Origin: Bdellovibrionales bacterium
Lineage (GTDB): Bacteria > Bdellovibrionota > Bdellovibrionia > Bdellovibrionales > UBA1609
Length of the DNA stretch: 64,000 nucleotides
Direction of reading: 5' to 3'
Assembly (NCBI GenBank): GCA_965202645.1
Contig: OZ241840.1
Location: 492,088-556,087 of the forward strand
Shown here: positions 1 through 59,907 of the stretch, piece after piece
How positions within the stretch are numbered: the stretch's first letter is position 1
Layout: every line of letters starts with the position of its first letter
Program-made: the position numbers and the translations under genes
The notes under the pieces: generated by a model
What the model was told of the DNA's origin: nothing
Databases searched by the model: none
The model's input: only the letters and a program-made list of their open reading frames with translations

Positions 1-670
1 TAACGCTGTCGTCATTATGCGAGTGTTCCGAGATATAATAATGCAGCAACTCGTGAATAACAACAATATGAAAATCAAAGTCATTGCTGTATATCTTATC
101 TCGGTTAATCCAAATATCGGATTCTATCGAAGAGGAAACAACACCTAACAGAGGGATGCGTGTTCCTTTTTTGGTGTTTGTTCCGTATTCTCCGCCCTCA
201 AAATAAGAGGCTGGAACAAAACAGACCTCATTTTTTGGAAATTATATATTTGACACCGCATTTGTAAAACCTTGAACGGTTTATGCACGGCAAAAGTTAA
301 ACAAAATCAATAATTTATATTATTAACTATCTGTTTTCTTAGTTTTATGCACGCTTTTTGCGCTAAATCATTAAAACCTCCTGTAAGCCTTACATTTAAA
401 GGCCATCACAGGTTTTATGCGGCTTTAAGTGTATAATTCCCCATTTTTTCCATTCCCTGCAATGCAATTAACCGGATCAGGCTTTTCCTTGAACTTAAAA
501 AGGGTTTCCCCTACAATTTCCTCTACCTTATTAAGCACATACTTAATCTCACTCAACCTGTCGCTATGAACAATATAAGTTGGCGGATCAATGGGGCCTA
601 TTGTGTTATCCCCGCCAAAAGGCTGGAAGCACACCACAAAAAAGAAAAAACTCATTCCTGTATATCCCAT
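1..670 (-). pseudogene. HExxH-motif (putative zinc metallopeptidase-like) gene interrupted by a 205-bp MITE; 3' part runs off the window
   Basis: Minus ORF 670->450 (MGYTG...IAGNGKN) and open frame 236->1 (EVCFVPASYFEGGEYG...IVVIHELLHYYISEHSHND) share the same phase once 237-449 (213 bp = 71 codons) is removed. The HELLH motif was read directly. Confidence 0.6.
237..441. mobile_element. MITE family A, copy 1 (205 bp)
   Basis: Imperfect terminal inverted repeats GGAAATTATATATTTGAC and (rc) GGGAATTATACACTTAAA. Flanked by the exact 8-bp direct repeat CATTTTTT at 229-236 and 442-449. Near-identical copy at 44249-44453. Confidence 0.85.
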
Positions 671-951
671 TGTTAAGCCCCCAAGCTATCGTAAGCAATA
701 TCGTTATTTTTGTGGAAAAAGTCAATTTTTTTGCCGAGCATAAGTCAGACTTTAGGCGAAAATTGCGTTTTTTGCCGGTGTGCCGAGCTGGCGCTTTTCC
801 TCCCCGTTTTTTCAGCTGGCCTTTTTGTTATGGAATACAGCTAAAGGCAATGACAAAGATTGCCCCAGCTGAAAAAAGCCAACTGGCAGAGTTTGAGCGT
901 GATAGCCCGGTTTGCCATGATAAACTCTGGATTATGCCCTTAAATCAATAA

Positions 952-1028
952 TGGTCGGACCGACAGGATTTGAACCTGCGACTTCCACCGCCCCATGGTG
1001 GCGCGCTGCCTGACTGCGCTACGGTCCG
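952..1028 (-). tRNA. tRNA-Pro (anticodon GGG)
   Basis: Reverse complement folds as a cloverleaf: acceptor CGGACCG/CGGTCCG, anticodon stem CCACC/GGTGG with loop AT-GGG-GC, T-loop TTCAAAT, encoded CCA. Confidence 0.93.
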
Positions 1029-1090
1029 CAAAGAGGCTTTCAATATATACAGATTCTTTAAAAGGGGCAAACGGATAAAAATTTGCCTCT

Positions 1091-1721
1091 CCCCTATTTA
1101 TATGCGGAAAAATTTATTTGAGGAAATGGCCCCCACGCTTTTTTTAACTCTACCCTGCTTTACATGCGAAAAAATATCAACAGATCCAAATAGCTGTCTT
1201 TCCCCTATTACATGCGGAACAGCCAGAGCTGTCTGAAAAAGCTGGCGGAGGATACCCTGCTTTACATGTGGAAAAATCCGCTGGCCGGGTCGGGGTTTAT
1301 AAGCTGAGGCGGCAAAGCCATTCTCTGGGCTTATTCTAACCCCTTTCGCTTGCAAATACACAGGTTGACACTGAAACTGCCGCAATAACAAGGGCTGTTC
1401 CTGAGTTCGCCCTTACAAAGGCCCTGTTCCTATAAGTTATTGATTTTACTATAATTTTTCTTGTCAAGCCATAAGTTAAGACATACTAGGAAAAAAATCA
1501 GAATCCCTATATTTATAGCAATTTTTATACTAAACTAAGGTCTAAAAGGGCGAACTCGGGACAAGGGCTGTTAATCCTCCGCCCGCAAATACACAGTTGA
1601 TATGCGGGGCTGTGGAAAAAGTTGCCCTGAATGCCTCCGCCCGCAAATACACAAGTTGACAGGCATGTCTAACACGATCTCTGGCATTTCTGGATTCCGC
1701 CCGCAAATACACAGGTTGACA
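1091..1721. repeat. Interspaced repeat array (CRISPR-like layout, no cas genes in window): 4 A-type plus 4 B-type units
   Basis: B units CCGCCCGCAAATACACAGGTTGACA, with GCAAAT anchors at 1352, 1585, 1643 and 1703. A units CCCTGCTTTACATGCGGAAAAAT at 1091-1113, 1152-1175, 1202-1220 and 1254-1277. Intervening segments are unrelated to each other. Confidence 0.5.
1400..1560. mobile_element. MITE family B, copy 1 (161 bp)
   Basis: TIRs CCTGAGTTCGCC and GGCGAACTCGGG. Flanked by the exact 12-bp direct repeat ACAAGGGCTGTT (1388-1399 and 1561-1572). An inverted-orientation homolog lies at 56430-56586. Confidence 0.75.
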
Positions 1722-1744
1722 AAAAGATAAAGAGCTTTCATACT
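1716..1744 (+). promoter_or_regulatory. Candidate sigma70-type promoter for tRNA-His
   Basis: TTGACA (1716-1721), a 17-nt spacer, then CATACT (1739-1744), about 50 nt upstream of the tRNA. The -35 box is the end of the last B-type repeat. Confidence 0.35.
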
Positions 1745-1792
1745 GAATGTTGCTGATCGGGCCAAAAAAGGGCAAAACAGACGCGAAAAAAC

Positions 1793-1870
1793 GGCGGTCG
1801 TAGCTCAGTTGGTTAGAGCTCCAGATTGTGGTTCTGGATGTCGCGGGTTCAAATCCCGTCGATCGCCCCA
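1793..1870 (+). tRNA. tRNA-His (anticodon GTG)
   Basis: Extra 5' G (G-1) opposite discriminator C, acceptor GCGGTCG/CGATCGC, anticodon loop TT-GTG-GT, T-loop TTCAAAT, encoded CCA. Confidence 0.95.
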
Positions 1871-1930
1871 CCTTGCAAAATAGGCCCGTTTGAGAAAACA
1901 ACAAAATATAGGCTTTAAAGAGAGGAGAAA

Positions 1931-2359
1931 ATGAAATTAAAATTTATTCCCCAAAATATTGAGGTGGAGGCGGATCCCAGCAAAACCGTTTTGGAGATAG
2001 GCAGAGAGCTGGGGCTTTTTATTCAATCCTCATGCAATGGGATGTGCGCCTGCGGGGATTGCCGTGTTTTTGTTCGGGAGGGGGAAAGCCACGCGCTTTT
2101 TCCTTCAGTCCAGGAGCTAAAATTGATAGGGCAAGGGCATTACATGGATCAAAGGCGGCTGGCTTGCCAGCTCTATTGTTTTGGAGATGTTGTCATTGAT
2201 CTCTCTGAGCAGGAGGACAGAGCCAATCAGGGCAAAATCTCCCAGCAGTTTTTAAAAAGAGCGCAAAAAAAGAGTCCAGAGGACGCCTATTCCAAGGGCG
2301 ATATTCTCATCGAGGACGATGATGATATAAAACAGATCAAAGAGGGCAAAATCACTTAA
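1931..2359 (+). CDS. [2Fe-2S] ferredoxin-like protein with an acidic C-terminal tail
   Basis: Cys pattern C-x5-C-x2-C (SSCNGMCACGDC) plus a distal RLACQ cysteine, as in adrenodoxin-type 2Fe-2S ferredoxins. RBS-like GAGAGGAG lies upstream. Confidence 0.7.
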   Translation: MKLKFIPQNIEVEADPSKTVLEIGRELGLFIQSSCNGMCACGDCRVFVREGESHALFPSVQELKLIGQGHYMDQRRLACQLYCFGDVVIDLSEQEDRANQGKISQQFLKRAQKKSPEDAYSKGDILIEDDDDIKQIKEGKIT

Positions 2360-2620
2360 CAACTCAATGCTTTAAAATACTCTGCCCATATAGGGATTTT
2401 GATTTTTCGCATAGCATGTTTCGGATAGCTTGGCCAGAAAAGTTATAGTTCAGCCCAATAGCTTAAAAAATAGATTGCCGGCGATAAGCCTAGCCAGCCT
2501 CGCGTGGAGCCTAGCCCATAGTTTGAAAAATAATCATAAAAACAGCTTGTCTTTATAAGCTCAAAGCGCTTTTATGATATAGCTTGTGCGTTTTAAGATT
2601 TTACAGCTTTTTGCCGCGGT

Positions 2621-3175
2621 ATGAAAATTGAGTTTAAAACTTACTTTGACGAGGGCTGTTTCCCGCTCCACAGACTACAGCTTGTCAGAGGATCGCCAGA
2701 GAGAGTCATTTGCTTTCTTATGCTCAATCCCTCTATGGCAGACGACAAAACGGACGACCCGACAATCAAAAGATGCAAAGGCTTTATGACGGACTTAGGC
2801 TATACAGGTTTAATTGTGGTCAATCTCTTTACTGTTATTTCAAAAGATCCGGACAAAATTTATAAAGCTTTGCGGAAAGACTGCGCAATATGGCCAAAAA
2901 GGCTTAAAGCCCAGCCAAACAAGCCTAATTTAAAATCATCAGCTAACCATATAAAATACGCTTTTAAAATTTCTGAAATTATTGTGGCCGGATATGGAGC
3001 TTTAAAACACAAAAACGCAATTAAACGGGCGGAGGAAATTTTTAAAATGACAAAAAAACCTATTTATGCCCTTAAGCTGACAAAGAGCGGCTTTCCGGGC
3101 CATCCGCTCTATTTAAACAAAAATCGCCATTTAACTCTTTTCAGAAGGGCTGGCTCAGGACACAAAATAGCGTAA
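2621..3175 (+). CDS. DUF1643-family protein
   Basis: ICFLMLNPSMADDKTDDPTIKRCKGF...VVNLF matches my recollection of the DUF1643 signature (fimlNPS.ad...DpT...c). No search was run. Confidence 0.6.
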   Translation: MKIEFKTYFDEGCFPLHRLQLVRGSPERVICFLMLNPSMADDKTDDPTIKRCKGFMTDLGYTGLIVVNLFTVISKDPDKIYKALRKDCAIWPKRLKAQPNKPNLKSSANHIKYAFKISEIIVAGYGALKHKNAIKRAEEIFKMTKKPIYALKLTKSGFPGHPLYLNKNRHLTLFRRAGSGHKIA

Positions 3176-3254
3176 AAATAGTGTTGCGCCAGCGCTCACA
3201 AACGGCTTATATTTGTTTGGCCGGAATGAAGCCCGGTTAAAATCAAATTGCAAA

Positions 3255-3869
3255 ATGAGCGCATTGGATCGGGACATAAAAAACACTCTAGGCTACACCC
3301 GGCCCCTCGCTGTTTTAAATAGATGGCTCAAACAAGCTTGTAAAATCAAGGGGATAAAAGAGCCTTGGGCTATGGTTTTATCCACAAGCTATAAGCGGAA
3401 AGCCAGCTCCCGTGTTGTTCTTCTAAAAAAAGTCAATCAAGGACGGCTGATTTTTTACACCAATTATTTGAGCGAAAAAGGGCGGGATATAGCCCACAGC
3501 TCTTGGACAGCTGTTAATTTTTATTGGCCCCAGCTGAGTCAGCAAATCCGCATAGAGGGAAAGGCTCAAAAGCTCAGCAGAAAGCAGTCCGTTTTATACT
3601 GGAAAACCAGATCCCGCTCCAGCCAGCTCAGCCAATGGATCTCAAAACAGTCTCAAGAGGCGGAATCCAGACAACAGCTGAAAAATTTAAAAAAAGCGGC
3701 GGAAAGGCGCTTTAAAAATAAAGAGATTCCCTGCCCAAAAAATTGGGGAGGCTATGCTGTGTCCATTCAGAAAATAGAATTTTGGAAAAACCGGGATCAT
3801 CGCCTGCATGACCGCTTTTTGTTCAAAAAAAAAGGCTCTGGATGGGAAAAACAAAGGCTTTTCCCTTAG
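3255..3869 (+). CDS. pdxH: Pyridoxamine 5'-phosphate oxidase
   Basis: Collinear with E. coli PdxH: RWL.QAC, FYTNY.S.KG, ...WGGY.V....IEFW..R.HRLHDRF...P at the C-terminus. The ORF is open from 3213; the Met at 3255 fits the homolog length better. Confidence 0.9.
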   Translation: MSALDRDIKNTLGYTRPLAVLNRWLKQACKIKGIKEPWAMVLSTSYKRKASSRVVLLKKVNQGRLIFYTNYLSEKGRDIAHSSWTAVNFYWPQLSQQIRIEGKAQKLSRKQSVLYWKTRSRSSQLSQWISKQSQEAESRQQLKNLKKAAERRFKNKEIPCPKNWGGYAVSIQKIEFWKNRDHRLHDRFLFKKKGSGWEKQRLFP

Positions 3870-3886
3870 TTTTAAGCGGGTTGTCG

Positions 3887-4066
3887 CTTGACCTAAATCC
3901 CATTATGATCTTCAGTTTTCCAGAGTTCAAGCTTTTAGGGTTAGCTGTGTTATGGATGGAGCCAGCCGGCTCAAGAGCCGGACGCCCGTCCCGATAAAAA
4001 TAAGCTTGGTCTCTGGAATAAAGGCAGGTTTAGCCTCGTGAATAGGTCAAGAAAGCTAGCTCAATT
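3887..4066 (+). repeat. Family C element, copy 1 (about 180 bp; candidate structured RNA or palindromic MITE)
   Basis: Roughly 85% identical by eye to the reverse complement of 12181-12361. Long-range complementary arms: 3887-3895 with 4043-4051, and 3920-3934 with 4002-4016. Inner hairpins CCGGCT-CAAG-AGCCGG and GGAC-GCCC-GTCC. Confidence 0.6.
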
Positions 4067-4221
4067 TAAAATTTTAGGCCGATTGTTTAACAGCCAGCCG
4101 GCAGGCTGAGGCTGTAAATAAGCCCTTGATTTTAGCTAAAACCGGGTTTTTAAAAGTTTTATAGGCCGGAGCGGAATTTTAAGCTATACTGCATTAGAAG
4201 GCAAGATTTAAGGAGCGCCTC

Positions 4222-5793
4222 ATGGGCTTTTATGAAACATTTTATATCTTTATAATGGGATGGCCTTTTGGCTTTTTGCTGGCCTGGATTTGGAGCAGTC
4301 TGGAAAAAAGGATCATGATCAAAAAAACAAAGCTGGAGGGAGGGCATATCCTCCAAGAGGCTCAAGAGAAAGCGGACGCTTTATTGGAGAAATGCCAAAA
4401 AGAGGCTCAAAGCACGCGGGAAAAAACATGGCGTATCTTTGAGAGGGAAAAAGAGCAAATCAAAGCCCATATCAAAACGCTTCAAGCTGTGGCGGATAAG
4501 AAGTCCCAGCAGTTGGCGCTAAAACACAGGGAAAAGAGCGCCCTTTTTAGCGCGCTGAAAAAAACCGCCCATCACATTCAGCGGGAGCATGCCCATTACA
4601 AAAAACAAAAGAGCCAACTGCGCTTGGATTTAAAACAACACGATCAAGACTCAGCTCAAAAAATTAAAAGCCATTTTTCCATTAACGCGGAAAAGCTAAG
4701 AGAGGAGCTGAAAAAAGAAATTGAGGACAGCTGGACAGATAAAATCAGAGAGGAATGGGAGGCGAAAAGCAAGCATAGCAAACAAAACCTTCAAAAAGAC
4801 TCTGTTTTTCTTTTAAATAAGGCTCTCAGCCGCTTTGACCGAGTTTATTGCCCGGAAAGAGGCATAAGAGCTGTCCCTTTTAAAACAGACAAACAGATGG
4901 AAAGAGCATTTGGCCCAGACAATGTTTATTTGAATGAGATTGAAAAAGAGTGCGGCGTGGATATTTTGCTCAACAAAGAGGACTCGCAGGCCTCTGTTTT
5001 TGGCATCGATCCCGTGCGCCGGGAGCTGGGCCGAGTCACTTTAAAAAAACTGCTCAAAAAGAGAAAAATAGATCTGCCGTCCATAAAAAAAGCTGTTCAG
5101 CGCTCTAAAAAAGATCTATTTGCCAAAATCCGCCGGGATGGGCAGGCCATCTGCAAAAGATTGAGGCTTAAAAATGTGGCGCCGGAGGCGCAAAATATGA
5201 TGGGGGCTTTGAGGTATAGATATTCGTTTGCTCAAAATCAGCACTTTCACTGTGAGGAGGCGGGCTGGCTTTGCGGCTTATTGAGCGCGGAGTTGAGTTT
5301 GCCGGTAAAGCCGGCGCAGAGAGCGGGCATGTTCCATGACATTGGAAAAGCCATGGATCACTCCATTGAGGGAAATCACGCTGTGATTGGAGCGGAGTTT
5401 CTCTCCAAGCATGGGGAGAGAGAGGAGATTCTTCACGCTGTCCGGGCGCATCACCATGATGTTCAGCCCTCCACCGCTTTGGCCTATTTGGTCATTGTCG
5501 CCGATTCTATCTCAGGCTCCCGTCCGGGCGCCCGCAGATTCACAGAGGATTCTTACAGCCAAAAAATGGCCAGTTTAGAGAGAATTATAGACAGCTTTGA
5601 GAACATTGAGGACGCGTATATTATGAGCGCCGGCCGTGAAATGAGAGTTATAGCGGACAACAAAAAAGTCAGCGATCAAGAGGCTTTAGAGCTAAGTCAA
5701 AAGATTGCCAGAAAAATTGAAAAAGAGTGCGCTTATCCGGGATTGATTAAAGTCACTGTTGTTTTGCACAGTGAAAAAACAGCCATAGCTTAG
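4222..5793 (+). CDS. rny: Ribonuclease Y
   Basis: N-terminal hydrophobic segment, long coiled-coil, KH-like region, and an HD domain (GMFHDIGKAMDH...HHHD). Confidence 0.93.
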   Translation: MGFYETFYIFIMGWPFGFLLAWIWSSLEKRIMIKKTKLEGGHILQEAQEKADALLEKCQKEAQSTREKTWRIFEREKEQIKAHIKTLQAVADKKSQQLALKHREKSALFSALKKTAHHIQREHAHYKKQKSQLRLDLKQHDQDSAQKIKSHFSINAEKLREELKKEIEDSWTDKIREEWEAKSKHSKQNLQKDSVFLLNKALSRFDRVYCPERGIRAVPFKTDKQMERAFGPDNVYLNEIEKECGVDILLNKEDSQASVFGIDPVRRELGRVTLKKLLKKRKIDLPSIKKAVQRSKKDLFAKIRRDGQAICKRLRLKNVAPEAQNMMGALRYRYSFAQNQHFHCEEAGWLCGLLSAELSLPVKPAQRAGMFHDIGKAMDHSIEGNHAVIGAEFLSKHGEREEILHAVRAHHHDVQPSTALAYLVIVADSISGSRPGARRFTEDSYSQKMASLERIIDSFENIEDAYIMSAGREMRVIADNKKVSDQEALELSQKIARKIEKECAYPGLIKVTVVLHSEKTAIA

Positions 5794-8206: not shown

Positions 8207-8436
8207 TGTCGGCTCTATTGGCGGGGGTTATGGGACGCGGGGCGTGGCAAATGCTTCCCCCGTCTATTGGCTGGCTGAAAATGGCAGAATGTATGGGGGT
8301 CGGACGCGCGGCTGGTCGTGGCAAATGCTTTCCCCGTCTATTGGCTGGCTGAAAATGGCAGAATGTATGGGGGTCGGACGCGCGGCTGGTCGTGGCAAAT
8401 GCTTTCCCCGTCTATTAGTTGGCTTAAAATGGCGTC
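8207..8436. repeat. 74-bp tandem repeat, about 3 units
   Basis: GTGGCAAATGCTTTCCCCGTCTATTGGCTGGCTGAAAATGGCAGAATGTATGGGGGTCGGACGCGCGGCTGGTC starts at 8244, 8318 and 8392. The last unit decays into the 3' end of the DoxX gene. Confidence 0.9.
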
Positions 8437-8887
8437 ATTTGTGGGACAGCCTCTTTTTTAACAGGCTGTCCAGGCTGTATTTTCCTCCTCCGGCCAATGT
8501 GAATAAGAGGAAAAACAGGGCATACAGCAAAGCCAGCTCCTTCGCTTTAAATGGATCTGGCCAATGAGTGATAAAGGCGGCCACTAACATTGTAAATAAA
8601 AGGCTAAAGCCTGCCCATCGGCTAAACAGCCCTAAAGCCAGGAGAATGGCTCCAAAAAACTCAGCGCCTGTGACAAGAAAAAGGCTCAGTGTGGAGCCTA
8701 AACCCAGCGGGTTGGGAAAGTGAGGGGCGATATTTGAAAAATTCATTAGCTTTCCATAGCCGTGAGAGCATAGCATAATACAAGAGACCGCCACTCTGAC
8801 AAATAAGTATGACCAGTCCAGCAAACGGCTTTCCATGGCCCGCCCAAAATTTAAGCCCAGGAGCTTTAAAGCTTTGTGTTTATTCAT
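8435..8887 (-). CDS. DoxX-family membrane protein
   Basis: About 150 aa with 4 predicted TM segments. The LL.RV....M..HGY.KL motif is typical of DoxX. Confidence 0.8.
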   Translation of the reverse strand: MNKHKALKLLGLNFGRAMESRLLDWSYLFVRVAVSCIMLCSHGYGKLMNFSNIAPHFPNPLGLGSTLSLFLVTGAEFFGAILLALGLFSRWAGFSLLFTMLVAAFITHWPDPFKAKELALLYALFFLLFTLAGGGKYSLDSLLKKRLSHK

Positions 8888-12085: not shown

Positions 12086-12180
12086 TTTTTTTTCTAAAAA
12101 AAACTGAGTTTTTTTTGAGTTTTAAGCCTCACCTTCCAAAAAATTTCCGAATACCGGATTTTTTAACAGGCTTTTTTATA

Positions 12181-12361
12181 AACTGAGCTGGCTCTCTTGG
12201 CTTATTCACGAGGTTAAATTTGTCTTTTTTTCAGAGGCCAAGTTTATTTTTATCGGGACGGGCGTCCGGCCCTTGAGCCTGCCGGCGCCATCCATGGCGC
12301 AACCAGCCCTTAAAGCTTGGCCTCTGGAAAAATTGAAGATCATAATGGGATTTAGGCCAAG
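12181..12361 (-). repeat. Family C element, copy 2 (inverted relative to copy 1)
   Basis: The reverse complement aligns end to end with 3887-4066. It lies upstream of yifB in the same relative orientation that copy 1 has to rny. Confidence 0.6.
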
Positions 12362-12449
12362 AGATCTAGTTCAGCTTATTTTTTTAGGCCGGGCTTTAAA
12401 ATCACTTTTAAAGCCTTGACTGCCCGGCGGGCTATGATATGCTAAAGGC

Positions 12450-14259: not shown

Positions 14260-15011
14260 GGTTCATGACAACTTAAGCTCTGTTTGATAGAGGTTAAGTT
14301 GTTGAAATGACTGTAAAAAACAAGTATTTTCTCCGTTCAAGAATTTCTGAGCCTAAATTTAGGGAAATTGTTAGGCTCTTTTCTGCCGATCTGACAGCCC
14401 AACAAATAGCTTTTTTTTCGGGAATCAGCAGAAACAGCATCAATAAAATCTTAAAAAATATCCGTATAAGAATGGCTGAGCATTGCGAGAAAAATAGCCT
14501 GTTTTCTAAAGGTCAAATAGAAATGGATGAAAGCTATTTTGGGCCTCGAAGAATACGCGGAAAAAAAGGCCGGGGAGCTTATGGAAAAACTATCGTTTTT
14601 GGCGTTAAAAAAAGACAAGGGAAGGTTTATACCCAAATCATTAAGAATTGCTCAAAAAAGGAGGTTTTGCCTCTTATAAGAGATAAAATTGACAGAAAGA
14701 CAACCCTATTTACAGACGGATTTAAGACCTATGATAGTTTAGTGGATTTGGGTTATAAGAAACATTATAGGGTGCATCACGGGAAGAATGAATTTTCTAA
14801 AAAAGAGGGGAAGATAAAAAGCCATATTAATGGCATAGAAAATTTTTGGGGGATCGCTAAAGTGAGGCTTTATAAATTTAGAGGAATGGATAAAAGAACA
14901 TTCTATTTGCATTTAAAAGAATGTGAGTTTAGATTTAATTATAGACAAGATAATTTATATGTGTTATTATTAAAAATCATCAGAAATAGACCCCTTAAGT
15001 TGTCATGAACC
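14260..15011 (+). mobile_element. IS1595-family (IS1016-like) insertion sequence, 752 bp
   Basis: Perfect 18-bp TIRs GGTTCATGACAACTTAAG (14260-14277; reverse complement at 14994-15011). Single transposase ORF. AAATAAA is duplicated at 14253-14259 and 15012-15018. Confidence 0.9.
14307..15008 (+). CDS. IS1595-family (ISXO2-like DDE) transposase
   Basis: 233 aa. The N-terminal HTH-like region, ...EMDESYFG...GKT.VFG...TDG.K.Y....H..V.H and ...HINGIENFW...K match my recollection of IS1016-group transposases. Confidence 0.88.
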   Translation: MTVKNKYFLRSRISEPKFREIVRLFSADLTAQQIAFFSGISRNSINKILKNIRIRMAEHCEKNSLFSKGQIEMDESYFGPRRIRGKKGRGAYGKTIVFGVKKRQGKVYTQIIKNCSKKEVLPLIRDKIDRKTTLFTDGFKTYDSLVDLGYKKHYRVHHGKNEFSKKEGKIKSHINGIENFWGIAKVRLYKFRGMDKRTFYLHLKECEFRFNYRQDNLYVLLLKIIRNRPLKLS

Positions 15012-33063: not shown

Positions 33064-34179
33064 TTAAAACAATTTTCTCTTTTTTTCTGAAATGGATTCC
33101 CGTTTGATGTCCGCAATTTCCCTCAAAAGCTCCTCTTCTCTTTTTTTAAGCTTTTTAGGCAGATCTACATGGATTTCACATATCAAATCGCCCCTTGTGG
33201 GATTATTTAAGCTGGGCAGGCCCCGATGAGGGAGGCGAATTTGCGCTCCGGGCTGGGTTCCGGGGGGGATTTTGACAGTCTCTTTCTCTGTCAATCCCCG
33301 CAGAGATTTTTCAGTCCCTAAAAGAGCTTGCAGATAAGAGATGGAAATAGACGCTCTGAGATCCCGCCCATCTTTTACAAACAGGGAATGGGGCTTTAAG
33401 CGAACTTCCATATAAAAATCACCGGGCGGCGCGCCGGAAGGGCCAGGCTCCCCTTCGCCCTGAAGGCGAAGTTTTGTCCCACTGCTGACGCCGGGCGGGA
33501 TTTTCACAGTCAAAGCTCTTTTTTTCCGGACAATCCCTTTGCCGTAACAATTTCCGCAAGGGCTTTCTAAAACTGAGCCTTGCCCTCCGCAGGAAGAGCA
33601 GGCTCTGGCTACAGAAAAAAAGCCTTGTTGAGAGATATGCTGCCCGCGGCCCTTGCATTGGCGGCAGGCTGTCCTTTTAGTTCCCGGCTGAGCGCCGGAG
33701 CCTTTGCAAATAGAGCAGGAGCTATGGCCGTGAAAAGAGATTTCCTTTTCCGCCCCGGTCAGAGCCTCTTTTAAGTCTAATTTCACCTCATGGTAAAGAT
33801 CAGCCCCTTTTTTGACCCTTTCAAAGTTAGAGGAGGAAAACAGCTCCTCAAATCCGCTAAAGCCTCCTCTAAAGCCTCTGCCAAAAAAGTCAGAAGCGCC
33901 AAAAATATCTTTAAAAGCCTCAAAAATATCCCCCACATCCTGAAAGCCTCCCCCTCCATTAAAGGCGCTGTGGCCGAAGCTGTCATATTTTCGCCTTTTT
34001 TTGGGATCGCCTAAAACTTGATAAGCCTCAGAGGCCTCTTTAAACTTCTCCTCCTTGCCCTTATCTCCTTTGTTTCGATCCGGATGATATTTAAAGGCCA
34101 GCTTTCTATAAGCTTTTTTAATCTCATCCTGAGAGGCGGTTTTAGAGACAGACAGAATGTCATAATAATCTTTAGGCAT
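33064..34179 (-). CDS. dnaJ: Chaperone DnaJ
   Basis: J-domain MPKDYYDIL...KYHPD, G/F region, and four CxxCxGxG zinc-finger motifs. The start is set at MPKDYY (ORF open to 34194). Confidence 0.95.
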
Positions 34180-34372
34180 AAAAATTTCCCTCAAGCTTTC
34201 TCAATCTCATCCTGAGAGGCGGTTTTAGAGACAGACAGAATGTCATAATAATCTTTAGGCATAAAAATTTCCCTCAAGCTTTCTCAATCTCATCCTGAGA
34301 GGCGGTTTTAGAGACAGACAGAATGTCATAATAATCTTTAGGCATAAAAATTTCCCTCAAGCTTTTGAGCCT
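34111..34372. repeat. 83-bp tandem triplication covering the dnaJ RBS, start codon and first 20 codons
   Basis: ATCTCATCCTGAGAGGCGG starts at 34121, 34204 and 34287. Each upstream unit encodes [23 protein letters not shown]. Confidence 0.95.
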
Positions 34373-36856: not shown

Positions 36857-37265
36857 GTGAATCTTAAATTGCGGGATCAGCGGCTGGTTTTTATTGTCGG
36901 CCCTGCGGCGGCCGGAAAAACAGACTGGGCGCTCCAATGGGCGGAGCGGGACTCAGCCTGTATTTTAAATAGCGATGTTTCTCCAAACTCCACAATGGGA
37001 AGTGAATCTTAAATTGCGGGATCAGCGGCTGATTTTTATTGTCGGCCCTGCGGCGGCCGGAAAAACAGACTGGGCGCTCCAATGGGCGGAGCGGGACTCA
37101 GCCTGTATTTTAAATAGCGATGTTTCTCCAAACTCCACAATGGGAAGTGAATCTTAAATTGCGGGATCAACGGCTGGTTTTTATTGTCGGCCCTACGGCG
37201 GCCGGAAAAACAGACTGGGCGCTCCAATGGGCGGAGCGGGACTCAGCCTGTATTTTAAATAGCGA
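36857..37265. repeat. 145-bp tandem repeat (2 full units plus a partial third) duplicating the miaA 5' end including the P-loop
   Basis: GTGAATCTTAAATTGCGGGATCA starts at 36857, 37002 and 37147. Units are near-identical. The upstream copies end in ...ILNSDVSPNSTMGSES*. Confidence 0.95.
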
Positions 37266-38064
37266 CAGCATTCAAGCTTATAGGGATTTAAACATTGGAT
37301 CAGCCAAACCGGATTTTACAAAATATCCCTCTATAGCTTTCCATCTCTTTGATGAGGTTTCCGCCCCCCAAATCTGGACAGCCGGAGATTTTAGGCGAAA
37401 AGCCCTTGAGGTTTTATCCCAAAAGCTCCCTCAAAAAAAAGTTTTTGTTGTGGGAGGAAGCGGGTTTTATATACAGGCTTTAGAAAGGGGAATGTATCCT
37501 CCGCCGGCTGTGTCAAACAGCGCTGTCCGGCGCCTGCGGGAAATAGCCAAACAAAAAGGCTTAGGCTTTCTCTATCAGGACTTGCGGGCCAAAGATCCGG
37601 AGAGGGCTAGGCAAATCAGCCCTAAAGATCAATATAGAATTATCCGCTCTTTGAGCTTGATAGAGAGCGGGGGGAGGCCTTTCTCTCAAATCAAAAAAGA
37701 GTTTAAGGAGCAAAAGCTCCCCTGGCCCTATCTCAAAGCGGGCTTAGCCCTTCCCAAAGAGGAGCTTTTAAAAAAGGTGAGGAAAAGAGCAAAAAACATG
37801 ATCCGAAAGGGCCTCATAGAGGAGATTGAGGCATTAGTCAAAAAAGGCTTTAGAGCCTGGCGGCCATTAAGCAGTGTGGGCTATAAAGAGGGTCTGCTTT
37901 ATCTGGACGGAAAAATTAAAAAAGAGGAGCTTGTGGATAAAATTGTCTCCAGCACAATGGCTCTGGCTAAAAAGCAAAACACCTGGCTTAAAAGAGACAA
38001 AAGCATCAAATGGCTGGATGGAAATCTATCCGCTTTAAAGGTTTACAAAGAAATTTTTAAGTGA
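37120..38064 (+). CDS. miaA: tRNA dimethylallyltransferase
   Basis: VFIVGPTAAGKT (P-loop), ILNSDSIQAYRDLNIGSAKP, and the typical MiaA length. The start is ambiguous (ATG 37120 lies in junction sequence; GTG 37147). Confidence 0.93.
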   Translation: MFLQTPQWEVNLKLRDQRLVFIVGPTAAGKTDWALQWAERDSACILNSDSIQAYRDLNIGSAKPDFTKYPSIAFHLFDEVSAPQIWTAGDFRRKALEVLSQKLPQKKVFVVGGSGFYIQALERGMYPPPAVSNSAVRRLREIAKQKGLGFLYQDLRAKDPERARQISPKDQYRIIRSLSLIESGGRPFSQIKKEFKEQKLPWPYLKAGLALPKEELLKKVRKRAKNMIRKGLIEEIEALVKKGFRAWRPLSSVGYKEGLLYLDGKIKKEELVDKIVSSTMALAKKQNTWLKRDKSIKWLDGNLSALKVYKEIFK

Positions 38065-42461: not shown

Positions 42462-43418
42462 ATGATTTTTTTACAAGCTGGACAAAACCAAGTGAAATTT
42501 GAGGATCAAACAAAAGAGCTGGGAGTCGAATGGGATAATGAGCCATCTGTGTTTATTGCCAAGTCTCCGGTGATGAAAAAAATTCACAGCAAAATAAAAA
42601 GTCTGGCCAGCTTATCTTCCCCTGTTTTGATTTTAGGGGCCAGCGGGACCGGACGGGACCGGGCGGCTTATGAGATATTTAAAGAGGGAAAAAACAGCCT
42701 CAAACGGTTTATCAAGTGTGTCTGCTATGGGCTAAGCCCAAATATGATTGAAAAACAGCTTTTTGGCGATTCGGAGGAAAACGGCATCTTAAATTGCGGG
42801 AGCTTTAACACATTGTTTATTGATGGGCTGGAATCCTGCCCCCCAGCTTTGCAAAACAAAGTTTTATCTTATCTGTTAGATCACAAAAGCCAAACAACAG
42901 CTCCCCGCCTGATTTGCTCCGCCAGCGACAATTTTCCTGAAAAGGTGAAAGAGCGGAGCTTTTCCAGAGCTCTGTTTGAGGCGCTTAGCCAAAATCTTCT
43001 AATTCTCCCATCCTTATCCGAAAGAGCGGAGGATGTGCCTTTCTTTATTTCTTTGTTTAATAAGAAAAATGATTTTAAAGGCTGTATCTCCCCTCCAGCT
43101 TTAGAGGCTTTAAAGAGGCGCTCCTGGGCGGGAAATATTACAGAGCTGAAAAATGTCTGTCTGCAAATGGCTATTATGCTTTCCGACAAAAGCATTATAG
43201 ATGAGTCAGATCTGGCTTTAATCATTAAAAAAGAGCCGCTGGCCAAAAGAGAGCTTAAATATGACCCTCAGCTGTCTCTGGAGGATTTGATCAACTGCTA
43301 TATTCAAATGTCATTGAGGCACTTTCGCTCTAAAAAGAAAAGCGCTGAGGCTTTGGGAATTTCCGTAAAAACTATTTACAATAAAATAAAAACCGGCCAA
43401 GTGGCCTACTCGGATTAA
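42462..43418 (+). CDS. NtrC-like AAA+ transcriptional regulator with C-terminal Fis-type HTH; sigma54-contact motif absent
   Basis: AAA+ core similar to bacterial enhancer-binding proteins. Walker A reads GASGTGRD, Walker B reads LFIDGLES, and there is no GAFTGA loop and no receiver domain. HTH: SAEALGISVKTIYNKIK. Confidence 0.7.
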   Translation: MIFLQAGQNQVKFEDQTKELGVEWDNEPSVFIAKSPVMKKIHSKIKSLASLSSPVLILGASGTGRDRAAYEIFKEGKNSLKRFIKCVCYGLSPNMIEKQLFGDSEENGILNCGSFNTLFIDGLESCPPALQNKVLSYLLDHKSQTTAPRLICSASDNFPEKVKERSFSRALFEALSQNLLILPSLSERAEDVPFFISLFNKKNDFKGCISPPALEALKRRSWAGNITELKNVCLQMAIMLSDKSIIDESDLALIIKKEPLAKRELKYDPQLSLEDLINCYIQMSLRHFRSKKKSAEALGISVKTIYNKIKTGQVAYSD

Positions 43419-44077
43419 AACAGCCCGCTCTCTCCGTCTTCGTCCTCCTCCTCTAAATCCTCTAAGGAGTCAAAGGGATCATCAAAGCTCATTTCCGCCT
43501 CCTCTTCCTCCTCATCGGAAGGATAGTCATTTTCCTGAAAAGACTCAAAGCTTTCATTGTTTTCTATATCTGACTCATCGCTTTCCATCCTCCCAAAATC
43601 ATCTCCGCCCAGCTCTTTATCATCCGCAAGGCCAATGCCCTCCTCAAAAGAGCTTTCATCCAAGCTTTGCGGATGTTGTTTTATATTTTTTGAGCGGGCT
43701 GAAACTTGACTTTCCTCTTGTTCCGGAGCGATAAATCCAGTTAACCGCTTATCCGCCGGCTCCTGCGCTTGGGTTTTTTTAGCGGAGCCGGAGGCCCGCT
43801 TTTTAAAAGGCTTTGCTCCAGATCTTTTTTTAGGCTTTTTTATGGCGGATTTCCCGCTTAAAGATTTTTTGGGGGGGGTAGGCTTTTTTTTCCGCTCTTT
43901 TTTTTTGGCCGGCTGTTTTTTGCGGGCGGGCTTTTTAGCGGAGCGCGCGGCTAATTTTTTAGATGATTTCTTTTTTTTCACAGGCTTTTTTTGGGAGGTC
44001 TGGCGGGCGGCGGGCTTTCTGTTGGCGAGTCGCTTTTTAACAGCCTTTTTTTTGGAGGAAGATTTCCTTTTTGCCAT
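43415..44077 (-). CDS. Lys/Ala/Pro-rich histone H1-like basic protein with a strongly acidic C-terminal tail
   Basis: The N-terminal ~110 aa is dominated by K, A, P and S (KKAVKKRLANRKPAAR...). The C-terminal ~70 aa is rich in D and E. It overlaps the convergent regulator gene by 4 nt. Confidence 0.55.
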   Translation of the reverse strand: MAKRKSSSKKKAVKKRLANRKPAARQTSQKKPVKKKKSSKKLAARSAKKPARKKQPAKKKERKKKPTPPKKSLSGKSAIKKPKKRSGAKPFKKRASGSAKKTQAQEPADKRLTGFIAPEQEESQVSARSKNIKQHPQSLDESSFEEGIGLADDKELGGDDFGRMESDESDIENNESFESFQENDYPSDEEEEEAEMSFDDPFDSLEDLEEEDEDGESGLF

Positions 44078-44248
44078 AATATTAAAATCCTTTTCAGTCG
44101 CTTAAAATAATTTTAAATTTATTTTTTTGTTATGCTTTTTAAGCTGTCAAGGCTTATTTGTCTGTCTTTAAAAAATTTTTTATAAAAACAAGCCTTTTTT
44201 CTTAAAATCTCAAAACATAGAAAAATGAGGCCATATATCAATCAGAAT

Positions 44249-44453
44249 GGAAATTATATATTTGACACCGCATTTGTAAAACCCTGAACGGTTTATGCAC
44301 GGCAAAAGTTAAACAAAATCAATAATTTATATTATTAACTATCTGCTTTCTTAGTTTTATGCACGCTTTTTGCGCTAAATCATTAAAACCTCCTGCAAGC
44401 CTTACATTTAAAGGCCATCACAGGTTTTATGCGACTTTAAGTATATAATTCCC
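44249..44453. mobile_element. MITE family A, copy 2 (205 bp)
   Basis: Near-identical to 237-441. Flanked by the exact 8-bp direct repeat ATCAGAAT (44241-44248 and 44454-44461). Confidence 0.88.
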
Positions 44454-44587
44454 ATCAGAATAGGTCTTGAGTTTGTCCAACCTGTCCAATTTTTTAAACG
44501 GCTTTATTTACAAGGGTTTTAGCGGTTTTTGTTTTATGCGGCGCATAACAAACGGCTTTTCCGGCTTCTCTGATCAGTCAAAGAATT

Positions 44588-44605
44588 GGGAATTATATAC
44601 TTGAC
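44588..44605. mobile_element. Solo family A terminal repeat
   Basis: GGGAATTATATACTTGAC matches the family A TIR. I found no partner end within 400 bp. Confidence 0.45.
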
Positions 44606-45000
44606 TCCCTTTAAAATGCTATTAAACTCTGCCACCGGCGCCTTTGCTTATCAAAAAAAATGAGCCATAAATAAGGCAAAAAAAATAAAAGAATACGCAA
44701 AAACTTTAACCGCAAATAAAGACAAGGCTCTCATAAAAGCCTTATCGGCTTTTTCATCAAAATTTATAAGCCGTGCGCTTTTTTAGGATCTCTGCCGGCT
44801 TGGATCTGGCTTAAAATCAAATAAAGCCAGCCGTTTTTTCCAAAAAAAGAGGAGCTATCCGTTTAGACCAGGGGTCGGGAGAAGGCTTGGCATCAAGCCA
44901 GCCGTTTTTTCCAAAAAAAGAGGAGCTATCGTTTAAACCAGAGGCTGTAAATAAGCTGGCCGGCTTGTAAAAATAAGCTTTTGCCCTTAAAATAAAAAGC

Positions 45001-52404: not shown

Positions 52405-52728
52405 GCAGGCTCTTCAGTCTTCTCTATATTGACTCAAGCTAAACAGATAAGCCAACTGATAATACAGCTCTTCAGCTTGAGCCTTCCCCATATTGACTCA
52501 AACTACACGGCTAAGCCAACTGATAATACAACTCTTCAGCTTGAGCCTTCCCCATATTGACTCAAACTACACAGCTAAGCCAACTGATAATACAGCTTTT
52601 CAGCCTAGACCTTCCCTATATTGACTCAAACTACACAGCTAAGCCAACTGATAATACAGCTTTTCAGCCTAGACCTTCCCTATATTGACTCAAACTACAC
52701 AGCTAAGCCAACTGATAATATGAACTGA
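52405..52728. repeat. 64-bp tandem repeat x5 immediately upstream of dapD
   Basis: TATTGACTCAA starts at 52427, 52491, 52555, 52619 and 52683. Confidence 0.95.
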
Positions 52729-52868
52729 GCGCCGCATATTCAAAAAATAGGTTGTATTTTTGTTAAAATTCCCTCAAGCTCTAACAATAAGCTTGAGTTC
52801 GTGACGGATCAAGCTATAAAACAGCCCCCGCCCTTTTAAAAATAGCGGGAAAACAAAGGACTGCGCTT

Positions 52869-54750: not shown

Positions 54751-54981
54751 CTTAAGTTAGCTTTTAATGATAGGAAAAGCAGGGACAGATCAGTGAGTTT
54801 AGATTTAATCATAGACAAGATAATTTATATGTGTTATTAAAAATCATTAGAAATAGACCCCTTAAGTTGTCATGAACCTTATTAAAAATCATTAGAAATA
54901 GGCCTCTTATCTTAAGCTGTATGAGCCTTTGTTATTATTAAAAATATTGAGAAATAGGCCCCTTAAAGCGCGTCATGAACC
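54745..54981. mobile_element. Internally deleted IS1016-like derivative with three tandem copies of the right end
   Basis: 54793-54878 matches IS positions 14925-15011. A left-end-like ACTTAAG..GATAG block lies at 54755-54780. Two further decayed copies of the terminal ~50 bp end at 54927 and 54981. Confidence 0.7.
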
Positions 54982-56418: not shown

Positions 56419-56429
56419 CTAGGGATCAT

Positions 56430-56586
56430 CCTGAGTTCGCCGTTTTAGACCTTGGCTCAGCATAAAAATTTCTATAAATATAGGGATCCTGATTTTTTCA
56501 TATGTCTTAATTTATAGCTTTACAAGAAAAATTATAGTAAAATCAATAATTTATATACACGTGGCCTTTGTAAGGGCGAACTCAGG
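56430..56586. mobile_element. MITE family B, copy 2 (157 bp, inverted relative to copy 1)
   Basis: TIRs CCTGAGTTCGCC and GGCGAACTCAGG. Flanked by 27-bp direct repeats (56403-56429 and 56587-56613; 25 of 27 identical) that include the fumC stop codon. Confidence 0.75.
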
Positions 56587-57212: not shown

Positions 57213-57685
57213 AGCGCTTAACCTTAAATAAAAAGAGCGGACTTTAAAATCCGCTATGTGTCAGAAACATTTTTATACAGCGCTCCGGCATACAAAATTC
57301 GCTCATCTCCAGTTTAAAAGCCCGCCTGAAATCCAACATAATAGCCCCTCGCTTTTGATTTTATATATGACAAAGCTGTTTTACGCCAGCCCGGCTTAAA
57401 AATCTAGTTTAAAGGCTTGCGCCCGGCCTATTTTTGCCCGATCTGGATTTTCCAAATGTTAAAAGCCTCCAAAGAGAAGAGTCGAGCATTTTATAAAGAG
57501 CATAAAGACAGGCCTTTTTTTAGGAGTTAACGGATTTTATAAGCGCTCTGCTCCTGTGGCGGCTTTTCAAGAGTCTGGAGCTGTGTTAAAGGCTCGTAAA
57601 ATTAGGGTTTTGGCCCCCAGCGTGCGGCCGGCCAGCCGACTGCATAGAGCTGTGGCAAAGGCCGTAAAATTAGGGGGATACAGAT

Positions 57686-57718
57686 CCTAAAAACTGCCGG
57701 GCGGACGCTATCCGCCCG
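57686..57718 (-). terminator. Rho-independent terminator downstream of rodZ
   Basis: The minus strand reads CGGGCGGA-tagcg-TCCGCCCG followed by GCAGTTTTT, 17 nt after the stop. Confidence 0.6.
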
Positions 57719-57734: not shown

Positions 57735-58520
57735 TTAAAAAGCCCTTTCAAAAAACGATCTGTTTCCCAGATCCACTTGCTCTCCATTGTAAAACATTTG
57801 AACAGCGCCCTGATACTCATCAAAGCGAATATAAATGCTGGTTTGAGCTTTAATATGAAACCAAACAGAAGGCTTAAGAATCTTTGTAACAGTGGCCTGC
57901 CGATCCGTTTTAAAATAAATTTGAAGAGTTTCAAATGATCTGATCAACAGCTCTTTTTGAAATACAGATTCAGCGATTTGATCCAAAAGATCGGGAGAGC
58001 CGCCAGCGGACTGCCCGCCCTCCGCGCTGTTTGAGTCTTTTGGGGCTATGGCGGCCTCATCTAAGCCTCCCGGAGCGTCTCCCTCTGAGCTTTTATCAGC
58101 CCCTGCCGGCGCCTCATTTTTTGCTGTCCCAGCCTCTTTATTAAAATAAGCTGGGCCGCCCATGACTCCTATCCACAAAAAAACAATAAAAAAACCAACA
58201 AATAAGAGCGCATAAGCTGAGCGGACAGGCTGTGGGGGAGCGCTTGGCTCTCCCGATGGGCCGGCTGGCTTTTTTTGGCTTTTTTGGCTGGCCCCCTCTT
58301 GGCTTTGGCTAAAAATATCCTCCGGATTCAAGCCTAAAAAACGGGCATAAGTTTTTATAAAGCCTTTTAAAAAAACAGGAGCGACAGAAGACGCCCTCCC
58401 CTCTTCAATCTCTCTTAAAATGGAGGGCTGAATTCTTGTGATTTCAAAAATTTGCTCATAGCTCAAGCCTTTGCGCTCCCTCTCAAGCTTTAAACAGCTT
58501 CCTATTTTAGAATAATCCAT
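57735..58520 (-). CDS. rodZ: RodZ-like cytoskeleton protein (HTH, TM and C-terminal DUF4115-like domains)
   Basis: N-terminal XRE-type HTH (LERERKGLSYEQIFEITRI), a single TM segment (LLFVGFFIVFLWIGV), and a position next to pilW/ndk as in many proteobacteria. Confidence 0.75.
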   Translation of the reverse strand: MDYSKIGSCLKLERERKGLSYEQIFEITRIQPSILREIEEGRASSVAPVFLKGFIKTYARFLGLNPEDIFSQSQEGASQKSQKKPAGPSGEPSAPPQPVRSAYALLFVGFFIVFLWIGVMGGPAYFNKEAGTAKNEAPAGADKSSEGDAPGGLDEAAIAPKDSNSAEGGQSAGGSPDLLDQIAESVFQKELLIRSFETLQIYFKTDRQATVTKILKPSVWFHIKAQTSIYIRFDEYQGAVQMFYNGEQVDLGNRSFFERAF

Positions 58521-58703: not shown

Positions 58704-59486
58704 TTAAGAAAGTTTTTTCAAAAGCTTTTTAGCTTGTTTTTCAAGATCAGTCCCCGCTTTGGCTTTTCTCAAAAAAAGCCCTAAATGATATTTGGCTTTT
58801 TGTTTGTTCCCTTTCTTGATATACAGCTGGGCCAGAGCCAACTGCTCCTCATGGGTTAATTCCCCGCAGAGAGGCTTTTCTTTCGCGCAGGCTAAAAGAG
58901 CTTTTTTTAAAAACCTCTCGGATGATTGGAGATGGCCTAAAGCCATCTCGGTCTTTCCCATATACAAATAGATAAAACAAATTTTCCCGCCGGGAAGGGA
59001 CAGCGATTCCTTCAGCCATTTTTTAGCTCTTCGATAGGAGCCCTTTTTGTAATAAGCCAAGGCTTTCTGGCCGACAAGCTTTAAATAATTTGTGTAGGTG
59101 ATGTCTTTTTCAGCTATTTTAATCTCCCTGAGGGACTTATTCAGCTGATTTTTATCAATATACACGCGGGCCAGATCCACCCGGGACTCTGTAAAATCAG
59201 GTTTTATTTTGAGTATCTTTTTAAACTCCTGCTGGGCTTTGTCACGCTGGCCCATAGATTGATAAACTATGGCTAAGGTGTGGCGAATTAAAAAATTTTT
59301 AGGATTCAGCTTAACCGCCTTCAGCAAATGGGAAAGGGCCCTGGGCTTATCACACTTGCTGATCAGCCCGACAGCGATTTTATGGTGATCGTTCGCCCTT
59401 TGAATGCTCTTTAGGCTGGTTTGGCAGGAGAAGAGCAAACATAAAAGGCTAAAAAAATAAAAACGGCGCATTGTTTTAATCCTCAC
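58704..59486 (-). CDS. TPR-repeat lipoprotein (PilW/PilF-like)
   Basis: Lipobox LLFSC. Several 34-aa TPR units. Located between ndk and rodZ. Confidence 0.7.
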   Translation of the reverse strand: MRIKTMRRFYFFSLLCLLFSCQTSLKSIQRANDHHKIAVGLISKCDKPRALSHLLKAVKLNPKNFLIRHTLAIVYQSMGQRDKAQQEFKKILKIKPDFTESRVDLARVYIDKNQLNKSLREIKIAEKDITYTNYLKLVGQKALAYYKKGSYRRAKKWLKESLSLPGGKICFIYLYMGKTEMALGHLQSSERFLKKALLACAKEKPLCGELTHEEQLALAQLYIKKGNKQKAKYHLGLFLRKAKAGTDLEKQAKKLLKKLS

Positions 59487-59907
59487 TGGCGAAAAGCTCC
59501 TCAGAGGAAAAAAACAAAGCCAACTCCCTTTTCGCGCTCACTGGAGAATCACTGCCGTGAATCGCGTTTTTTCCAATACTCTCCCCATACTCATAGCGGA
59601 TAGTGCCCGGCCGGGATTTTTTGGGATCTGTATCCCCCATAATTTCCCTGACCTTTAATACAGCCCCAGTCCCTTGAAAAACAGCCACAGCCACAGGAGC
59701 TGAGCTTATAAAATCCGTTAACTCCTGAAAAAAAGGCCTGTCTTTATGCTCTTTATAAAACTCTCGGCACTTTTCTTTGGATATTTTTAACATTTTTAAG
59801 CCAATAAGAGCGAGGCCCTCCCGCTGAATTTTTTGTATGATGGCCCCCGCCTTTTGTTTATCCATGGCATTGGGCTTTATAAGAACAAATGTCCGCTCCA
59901 TGATCAT
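59476..59907 (-). CDS. ndk: Nucleoside diphosphate kinase
   Basis: ERTFVLIKPNA...NAIHGSDS (active-site His). Confidence 0.96.
   Translation of the reverse strand: MIMERTFVLIKPNAMDKQKAGAIIQKIQREGLALIGLKMLKISKEKCREFYKEHKDRPFFQELTDFISSAPVAVAVFQGTGAVLKVREIMGDTDPKKSRPGTIRYEYGESIGKNAIHGSDSPVSAKRELALFFSSEELFASED

Follow-up and report, generated by a model that had tools for sequence, protein, structure and literature searches.

Recent insertion of a MITE with an 8-bp target duplication has very probably inactivated a gene for a putative metzincin-like zinc metalloprotease

The start of the 64-kb stretch of DNA analysed here (the window) raises the question of whether a short, non-coding element has split a gene and, if so, what that gene encoded, how recently it was lost and which transposase moved the element. 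The evidence presented below makes it highly probable that a MITE inserted recently, with an 8-bp duplication, and inactivated a gene of ~190 codons for a putative metzincin-like zinc metalloprotease. The coordinates of the relevant features are given in Table 1.

Table 1. Features of the insertion site and further mobile-element sequences in the window
Feature	Position	Strand	Description
Stranded 3' gene fragment	1..236	-	EVCF...HELLHYYISEHSHNDDSV; open to the window edge
Putative zinc-binding motif	23..55	-	HELLHYYISEH (HExxHxxxxxH)
Target-site duplication of copy A, left	229..236		CATTTTTT
MITE copy A	237..441	+	205 bp, non-coding, 32% GC; limits set by the end of homology to copy B
Left terminal inverted repeat, copy A	237..261	+	GGAAATTATATATTTGACACCGCAT
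Sigma-70-like promoter match, outward-facing	241..268	-	TTTACA, 16-nt spacer, TATAAT; 11/12; consensus match only
Right terminal inverted repeat, copy A	417..441	-	GGGAATTATACACTTAAAGCCGCAT reading inward (reverse complement of the right end)
Truncated 5' gene fragment	425..670	-	76 native codons + GELYT + stop from the MITE; 81 aa; identical to database protein P0001
Target-site duplication of copy A, right	442..449		CATTTTTT; minus strand is part of the G-K-N codons
IS1595-family insertion sequence	14260..15011	+	752 bp; 18/18 perfect ends GGTTCATGACAACTTAAG
Target-site duplication of copy B, left	44241..44248		ATCAGAAT
MITE copy B	44249..44453	+	205 bp, 97.6% identical to copy A, intergenic
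Target-site duplication of copy B, right	44454..44461		ATCAGAAT
Solo terminus of the MITE family	44588..44609	+	GGGAATTATATACTTGACTCCC

Two formerly continuous gene halves

The preliminary description had reported a 205-bp element with imperfect terminal inverted repeats, flanked on both sides by CATTTTTT (229-236 and 442-449). When the coordinates, the size, the flanks and the repeats were rechecked, each proved correct. The terminal inverted repeats of this element (copy A) are 25 nt long with 76% complementarity. Analysis of base composition revealed a GC content of 32% in the element compared with 40% in the flanking coding sequence and 44% in the window, and the window ORF list contained no ORF of at least 30 aa lying fully within the element. 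The 8-bp target falls in the codon register GG[A AAA AAT G]AG, which encodes G-K-N-E. The chance probability of an exact 8/8 flank is about 1.7e-5 per element.

On the minus strand, the ORF that begins at ATG 670 reads ...CIAGNGKN and then runs into the element. Excision of positions 237-449 in silico (213 bp), which removes the element and one duplication, gave the predicted empty-site sequence ...GGAAAAAATGAGGTC... and joined ...CIAGNGKN in frame to EVCFVPASYF...IVVIHELLHYYISEHSHNDDSV. The restored frame comprises 152 codons on the minus strand, extending from ATG 670 to position 2 and running off the window start; one continuous ORF that continues off the window had been claimed when the locus was first described. 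No in-frame ATG, GTG or TTG was present ahead of the HExxH motif in the 3' fragment. The disrupted gene follows tRNA-Pro at a distance of 282 bp.

A phmmer search of the joined product against 1.84 billion representative proteins returned two matches. One was P0001, the 81-aa ORF itself; the other was P0002, a complete protein of 193 aa from an ENA metagenome contig, which in this exhaustive scan is the only homolog besides the gene's own stub. Alignment by BLASTP revealed that residues 7-145 of the joined product match residues 4-160 of P0002 (E 5e-13). The two halves also matched when used alone, in colinear order, with the N-terminal half (7-76) aligning to P0002 4-73 (pairwise E 8e-9) and the C-terminal half to P0002 116-160 (E 3e-5). 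The N-terminal alignment stops exactly at the break, where NGKN corresponds to P0002 residues 70-73, and the restored junction NGKN/EVCF corresponds to NGKNEMCF in P0002. At the DNA level, the junction AATGGAAAAAATGAGGTCTGTTTT and its P0002 counterpart AATGGCAAAAATGAGATGTGTTTT are identical at 20/24 nucleotides. P0002 therefore spans the break in both protein and DNA, which provides an empty site in a distant ortholog and rules out a coincidental ORF. The two gene halves were formerly continuous, and the earlier claim that the element splits a gene is borne out by a protein that is colinear with both halves and continuous across the restored junction.

It is accordingly very improbable that the restored ORF is a coincidence, with flanks that are unrelated or non-coding and an element placed in an intergenic region or separating two genes. 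Two frames would join in phase with a chance of 1 in 3, neither half has a curated family match, and a word-index homolog search with the single joined sequence gave no match; yet both halves independently match the same single protein, in order, among 1.84 billion, the agreement extends right to the join (NGKNEVCF compared with NGKNEMCF), and the 152-codon open frame was obtained in 0/5000 shuffles of the joined 457 nt. The last 25-40 codons of the gene lie beyond the window start, and further damage in this 3' end is possible.

Mobility of the element and its likely transposase

Searching the window with either terminus of copy A located copy B, which lies between two divergent genes. The two copies differ at five positions, all of them transitions, and their homology ends at the same two element positions, which sets the boundaries independently. 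In total, the 64-kb window contains two full copies and one solo end; no partner was found for the solo end. The ends of the family are denoted GGRAATTATAYAC. Among 185,579 species-representative genomes, the 25-nt terminus was present in one, the Bdellovibrionales MAG APA_bin_46, which carries a 148-bp variant (L002 2856-3003) with GAATTTTC on both sides (8/8). Another member, of 195 bp, was identified on the metagenome contig L017 (14350-14544), whose ferredoxin is 84% identical to the window ferredoxin. In this member the terminal repeat is perfect over 19 nt, the right-hand 46 nt match the window copy with 87% identity, and the flanks, GAAATTTC and GAATTTTC, agree at 7/8 positions. A blastn search of the element against plasmids and phages returned chance-level fragments only.

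Four full copies thus have 8-bp flanking repeats, three of them 8/8 and one 7/8, a pattern characteristic of cut-and-paste insertion with cuts staggered by 8 bp. The element is mobile, since it is present in several copies with different duplications. The designation as a MITE, made originally from copy A, now draws on a second 205-bp copy with a different exact 8-bp duplication and on further members in two other assemblies with 8/8 and 7/8 flanks. Knowing the element ends and the 8-bp duplication makes it possible to annotate the whole family in these genomes and to look for its transposase.

The members in these two other Bdellovibrionales-like assemblies occupy the same GAATTTTC site (L017 14336-14690, L002 2842-3030, L001 and L003), and this site is located inside one end of a different small element with inverted repeats (GTGTTTGAATTTTCCGGTTTTAAGTCC...). 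The GAATTTTC-bearing terminus is either an insertion hot spot or part of a nested composite that is being propagated. L001 was considered as the beginning of an autonomous IS and was rejected, as comparison with L017 identified it as a different small repeat with a nested remnant.

Bacterial MITEs are non-autonomous derivatives of DDE insertion sequences. Like the Correia, RUP and Nezha elements, the window element is short, AT-rich and non-coding, carries terminal inverted repeats, and occurs in multiple copies, in genes and between genes, with a duplication of fixed length and copy-specific sequence; an outward promoter may be another shared property. In contrast, no element in the collections searched resembles it in sequence, and it duplicates 8 bp, whereas Correia elements duplicate TA. 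We find it scarcely credible that 237-441 is instead a dispersed regulatory or structural repeat (REP-like, a small RNA or a terminator cassette) whose flank identity is incidental. The element contains an 11/12 promoter-like site and folds more strongly than shuffled sequences (z -4.3), but the fold is accounted for by pairing of the terminal repeats, and an Rfam scan of positions 1-3000 identified two tRNAs only, with no match in the element. The element also lies inside a coding frame, it possesses terminal inverted repeats, and each of its two window copies is bordered, right where the homology stops, by its own exact 8-bp direct repeat, all of which argues for a MITE.

The only transposase gene among the window ORFs scanned belongs to an IS1595-family insertion sequence. 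Its product of 233 aa matched Pfam PF12762 at 2e-25 and NCBIfam NF033547 with 154 bits (cut-off 75), and the insertion sequence is flanked by a 7-bp repeat, AAATAAA. A 69%-identical IS1595 transposase was also found 1.2 kb from the P0002 gene. Insertion of IS1595-family members usually leaves 8-bp duplications, and Merlin transposons, their eukaryotic relatives, carry 5'-GG at the termini (PMC8101967). The MITE has the same 8-bp duplication and GG termini, together with ACTTAA in the same register as in the window insertion sequence (positions 12-17); GG and ACTTAA are all that its right end has in common with the IS1595 ends. It encodes nothing, and the co-resident ends GGTTCATGACAACTTAAG otherwise differ from it; the IS1595 members at window 14260-15011 and L004 1981-2807 have GGTTCATG... 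ends, unlike the MITE termini. Taken together, the 8-bp duplication, the GG termini and the IS1595-family insertion sequence in the window make IS1595-type mobilisation the best-supported inference, and we regard mobilisation of the MITE in trans by an IS1595-family transposase as an evenly balanced proposition.

Families other than IS1595 make 8-bp duplications as well, and movement of the MITE by one of these (IS6/IS26, ISL3, IS66, IS256 or IS1) is a possibility to be taken seriously, if a somewhat doubtful one. The different terminal repeats of the window IS1595 member are in keeping with such a source, as is the outcome of the search for an autonomous partner: neither the window nor 185,579 species genomes, JGI metagenomes, IMG/VR, plasmids or phages yielded an autonomous element with MITE ends. 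The strict terminal-repeat pattern gave no match in the JGI metagenomes and the pattern scan of IMG/VR gave 0 matches. A relaxed terminal pattern gave 12 metagenome matches, each of which is an isolated end within coding sequence or tandem repeats and has neither a partner end nor a transposase. Two candidate partners were rejected, L007 because the ends of this contig are inverted duplicates and L011 because it carries no transposase ORF. What weighs against a family other than IS1595 is that the sole transposase gene among the ORFs scanned is of the IS1595 family and that the MITE termini start with GG and share the ACTTAA register with the window insertion sequence. In addition, the ends of the ISNwi1 subgroup of IS1595, which we take to be 'ggnnatTAT' in ISfinder, would fit GGAAATTAT and GGGAATTAT of the MITE.

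The product of the disrupted gene and the timing of its loss

Searches of Pfam, NCBIfam and PHROGs with the joined protein or P0002 identified no family and nothing above noise. The preliminary description had suggested a SprT-like or ImmA/IrrE protein; these profiles gave no match in the three collections even at E up to 10, and the weak signal that was obtained is metzincin/MMP-like instead. The best stray profile matches were metallo_LGF (0.038) and YgjP-like (0.19). A word-index search with a profile of the two sequences returned P0002 only and no further member.

Comparison of the window protein with P0002 revealed a common short hydrophobic N-terminus with a conserved Cys, an NGKNExCF block and the HExxHxxxxxH motif, which reads HELLHYYISEH in the window protein and HELFHTYIYQH in P0002. 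Relative to HExxHxxGxxH, the three His and the Glu are kept in both proteins and the Gly is replaced by Ile in both. When the two-sequence profile was compared with PDB sequences, weak matches were obtained to the catalytic domain of MMP-1 (E 0.01) and to fragilysin (E 0.55). The MMP-1 match covers the three-His motif, the Met-turn and the following helix, with LLMYKSY of P0002 aligned to ALMYPSY of MMP-1 at the Met-turn; the corresponding region of the window gene lies beyond position 1. Pfam Peptidase_M10 gave no match, and the AlphaFold2 model built on the two-sequence alignment was unusable (pLDDT 30).

The window protein weakly resembles metzincins (matrixin/MMP, fragilysin) in having HExxH with a third His six residues later, and P0002 in having a Met-turn-like segment followed by a C-terminal helix. 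In contrast to metzincins, the whole protein is about 190 aa and differs in its N-terminal half, Ile stands in place of the motif Gly, and the similarity reaches E 0.01 only. From these features we infer that the product is a minimal metzincin-like zinc protease, and the pair is flagged here as a very small orphan family whose zinc site is metzincin-like.

We propose that the MITE, as a non-autonomous cut-and-paste (DDE-type) element, landed in the coding sequence of this small gene. The transposase would have made cuts staggered by 8 bp at CATTTTTT, in codons G-K-N, and repair would have duplicated the site. The element supplies stop codons in the frame of the gene, and the product is now at most a 76-residue N-terminal stub followed by 5 element-encoded residues. 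As the catalytic HExxHxxxxxH half is left with no start codon, its synthesis is precluded and the gene is very probably inactivated, and the annotated 81-aa "hypothetical protein" can be reinterpreted as the 5' stub of a disrupted gene. The insertion appears recent, as had been supposed in the preliminary description, because both duplications are perfect, the two gene halves remain open and copies A and B share 97.6% identity.

An empty site at the DNA level was also sought via the neighbours of the adjacent ferredoxin gene, and none was found in the collections searched. The ferredoxin relatives, one of which is a Bdellovibrionales MAG according to NCBI, are at most 84% identical and not syntenic; with this divergence and their different gene order, they offer no orthologous site for such a comparison. 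An insertion of this kind is already known and represents an ordinary, textbook bacterial gene inactivation, and it leaves the understanding of transposition and of proteases unchanged. Its value is as a clean, base-resolved example of MITE insertion in a poorly studied bacterial lineage.

Outward promoter matches and other repeats in the window

The same TTTACA-16-TATAAT site is present in copies A and B, 5 bp from the left end and reading outward, and the left end of the element may, judging from this motif, act as an outward promoter. In copy A the match is directed into the stranded 3' gene half. In copy B it is directed at a Lys-rich ORF (43415-44077), the start of which lies 172 bp from the left end. 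This ORF, on the minus strand, encodes 220 aa with an N-terminal half that is very Lys/Ala/Pro-rich, like histone H1, and an acidic C-terminal tail; searches of Pfam and NCBIfam gave no match.

We consider it unlikely that the insertion is, rather than a neutral inactivation, a retained regulatory change in which an outward promoter drives the 3' gene half or, at copy B, ORF 43415-44077. The 11/12 site does face outward in both copies, and copy B does lie upstream of a minus-strand ORF start, but the promoter is a match to a consensus only, its -10 box overlaps the AT-rich terminal repeat, and the 3' gene half lacks a start codon in frame. Recent insertion with inactivation of the gene remains the preferred reading. 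A broader proposal, that the MITE family is a mobile promoter cassette and, jointly, that the hit gene founds a new family of minimal MMP-like metzincins, is likewise improbable. If true, the element would spread through small (about 2 Mb), repeat-rich Bdellovibrionales-like genomes, nesting in other MITEs and rewiring neighbouring genes, and the proteins would form a previously unseen family of MMP-like metzincins of minimal size (about 190 aa), to which only two of 15 billion predicted proteins belong.

The window is otherwise ordinary chromosome, encoding DnaK, DnaJ, RelA/SpoT, S4, MiaA, Gmk, fumarase, and Sel1- and ankyrin-repeat proteins, and it is unusually rich in small dispersed repeats. 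The right end of the IS1595 insertion sequence, about 100 bp, recurs at 54793-54878 with 93-98% identity; next to it are two tandem, degenerate repeats of its final 55 nt (to 54989), which lie immediately upstream of the fumarase gene. A second MITE-like family, about 160 bp in length, is represented at 1399-1561 and 56429-56586, with 16-nt ends TCCTGAGTTCGCCCTT (94%). Its first copy interrupts an array of 26-nt repeats and is bordered by an exact 12-bp direct repeat, ACAAGGGCTGTT, at 1388-1399 and 1561-1572; the second is in inverted orientation and has a longer, offset flanking repeat, TAGCTATCGGGAGCCGGGG. A third dispersed repeat, about 190 bp long, has copies inverted relative to each other at 3884-4075 and 12170-12364 (83-92% identity), with ends that contain CTTGACCTA and with one copy just upstream of an RNase Y-like gene.

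Two arrays of short repeats were identified in the spacer between the divergent tRNA-Pro and tRNA-His genes (1029-1793). Upstream of tRNA-His there are 4 copies of TCCGCCCGCAAATACACAGGTTGACA, spaced 58-60 bp apart and each ending in a TTGACA hexamer, and upstream of tRNA-Pro there are 5 copies of TTACATGCGGAA, 16-54 bp start to start. These arrays may be reiterated promoters or binding sites. Tandem arrays were also found at 52412-52731 (period 64, about 5 units), 36857-37291 (period 145, 3 copies), 34110-34365 (period 83, 3 copies, at the 5' end of the dnaJ ORF) and 8237-8458 (period 74, 3 copies). Several inverted repeats of 30-68 nt with 82-97% identity, located at 57454-57715 and 59596-59795, bracket a region of ~2 kb with two ORFs on the minus strand (57735-58520 and 58704-59486), and this segment may be invertible or composite.

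In the relatives L017-L019 the gene order is ZapA, 5-FTHF cyclo-ligase, RNase Y, TyrRS and ferredoxin (Fer2). The order in the window (1931-5793) is tRNA-His, ferredoxin, DUF1643, PNP oxidase, a repeat and the RNase Y-like gene; this difference from L017-L019 points to local rearrangement in a repeat-rich genome.
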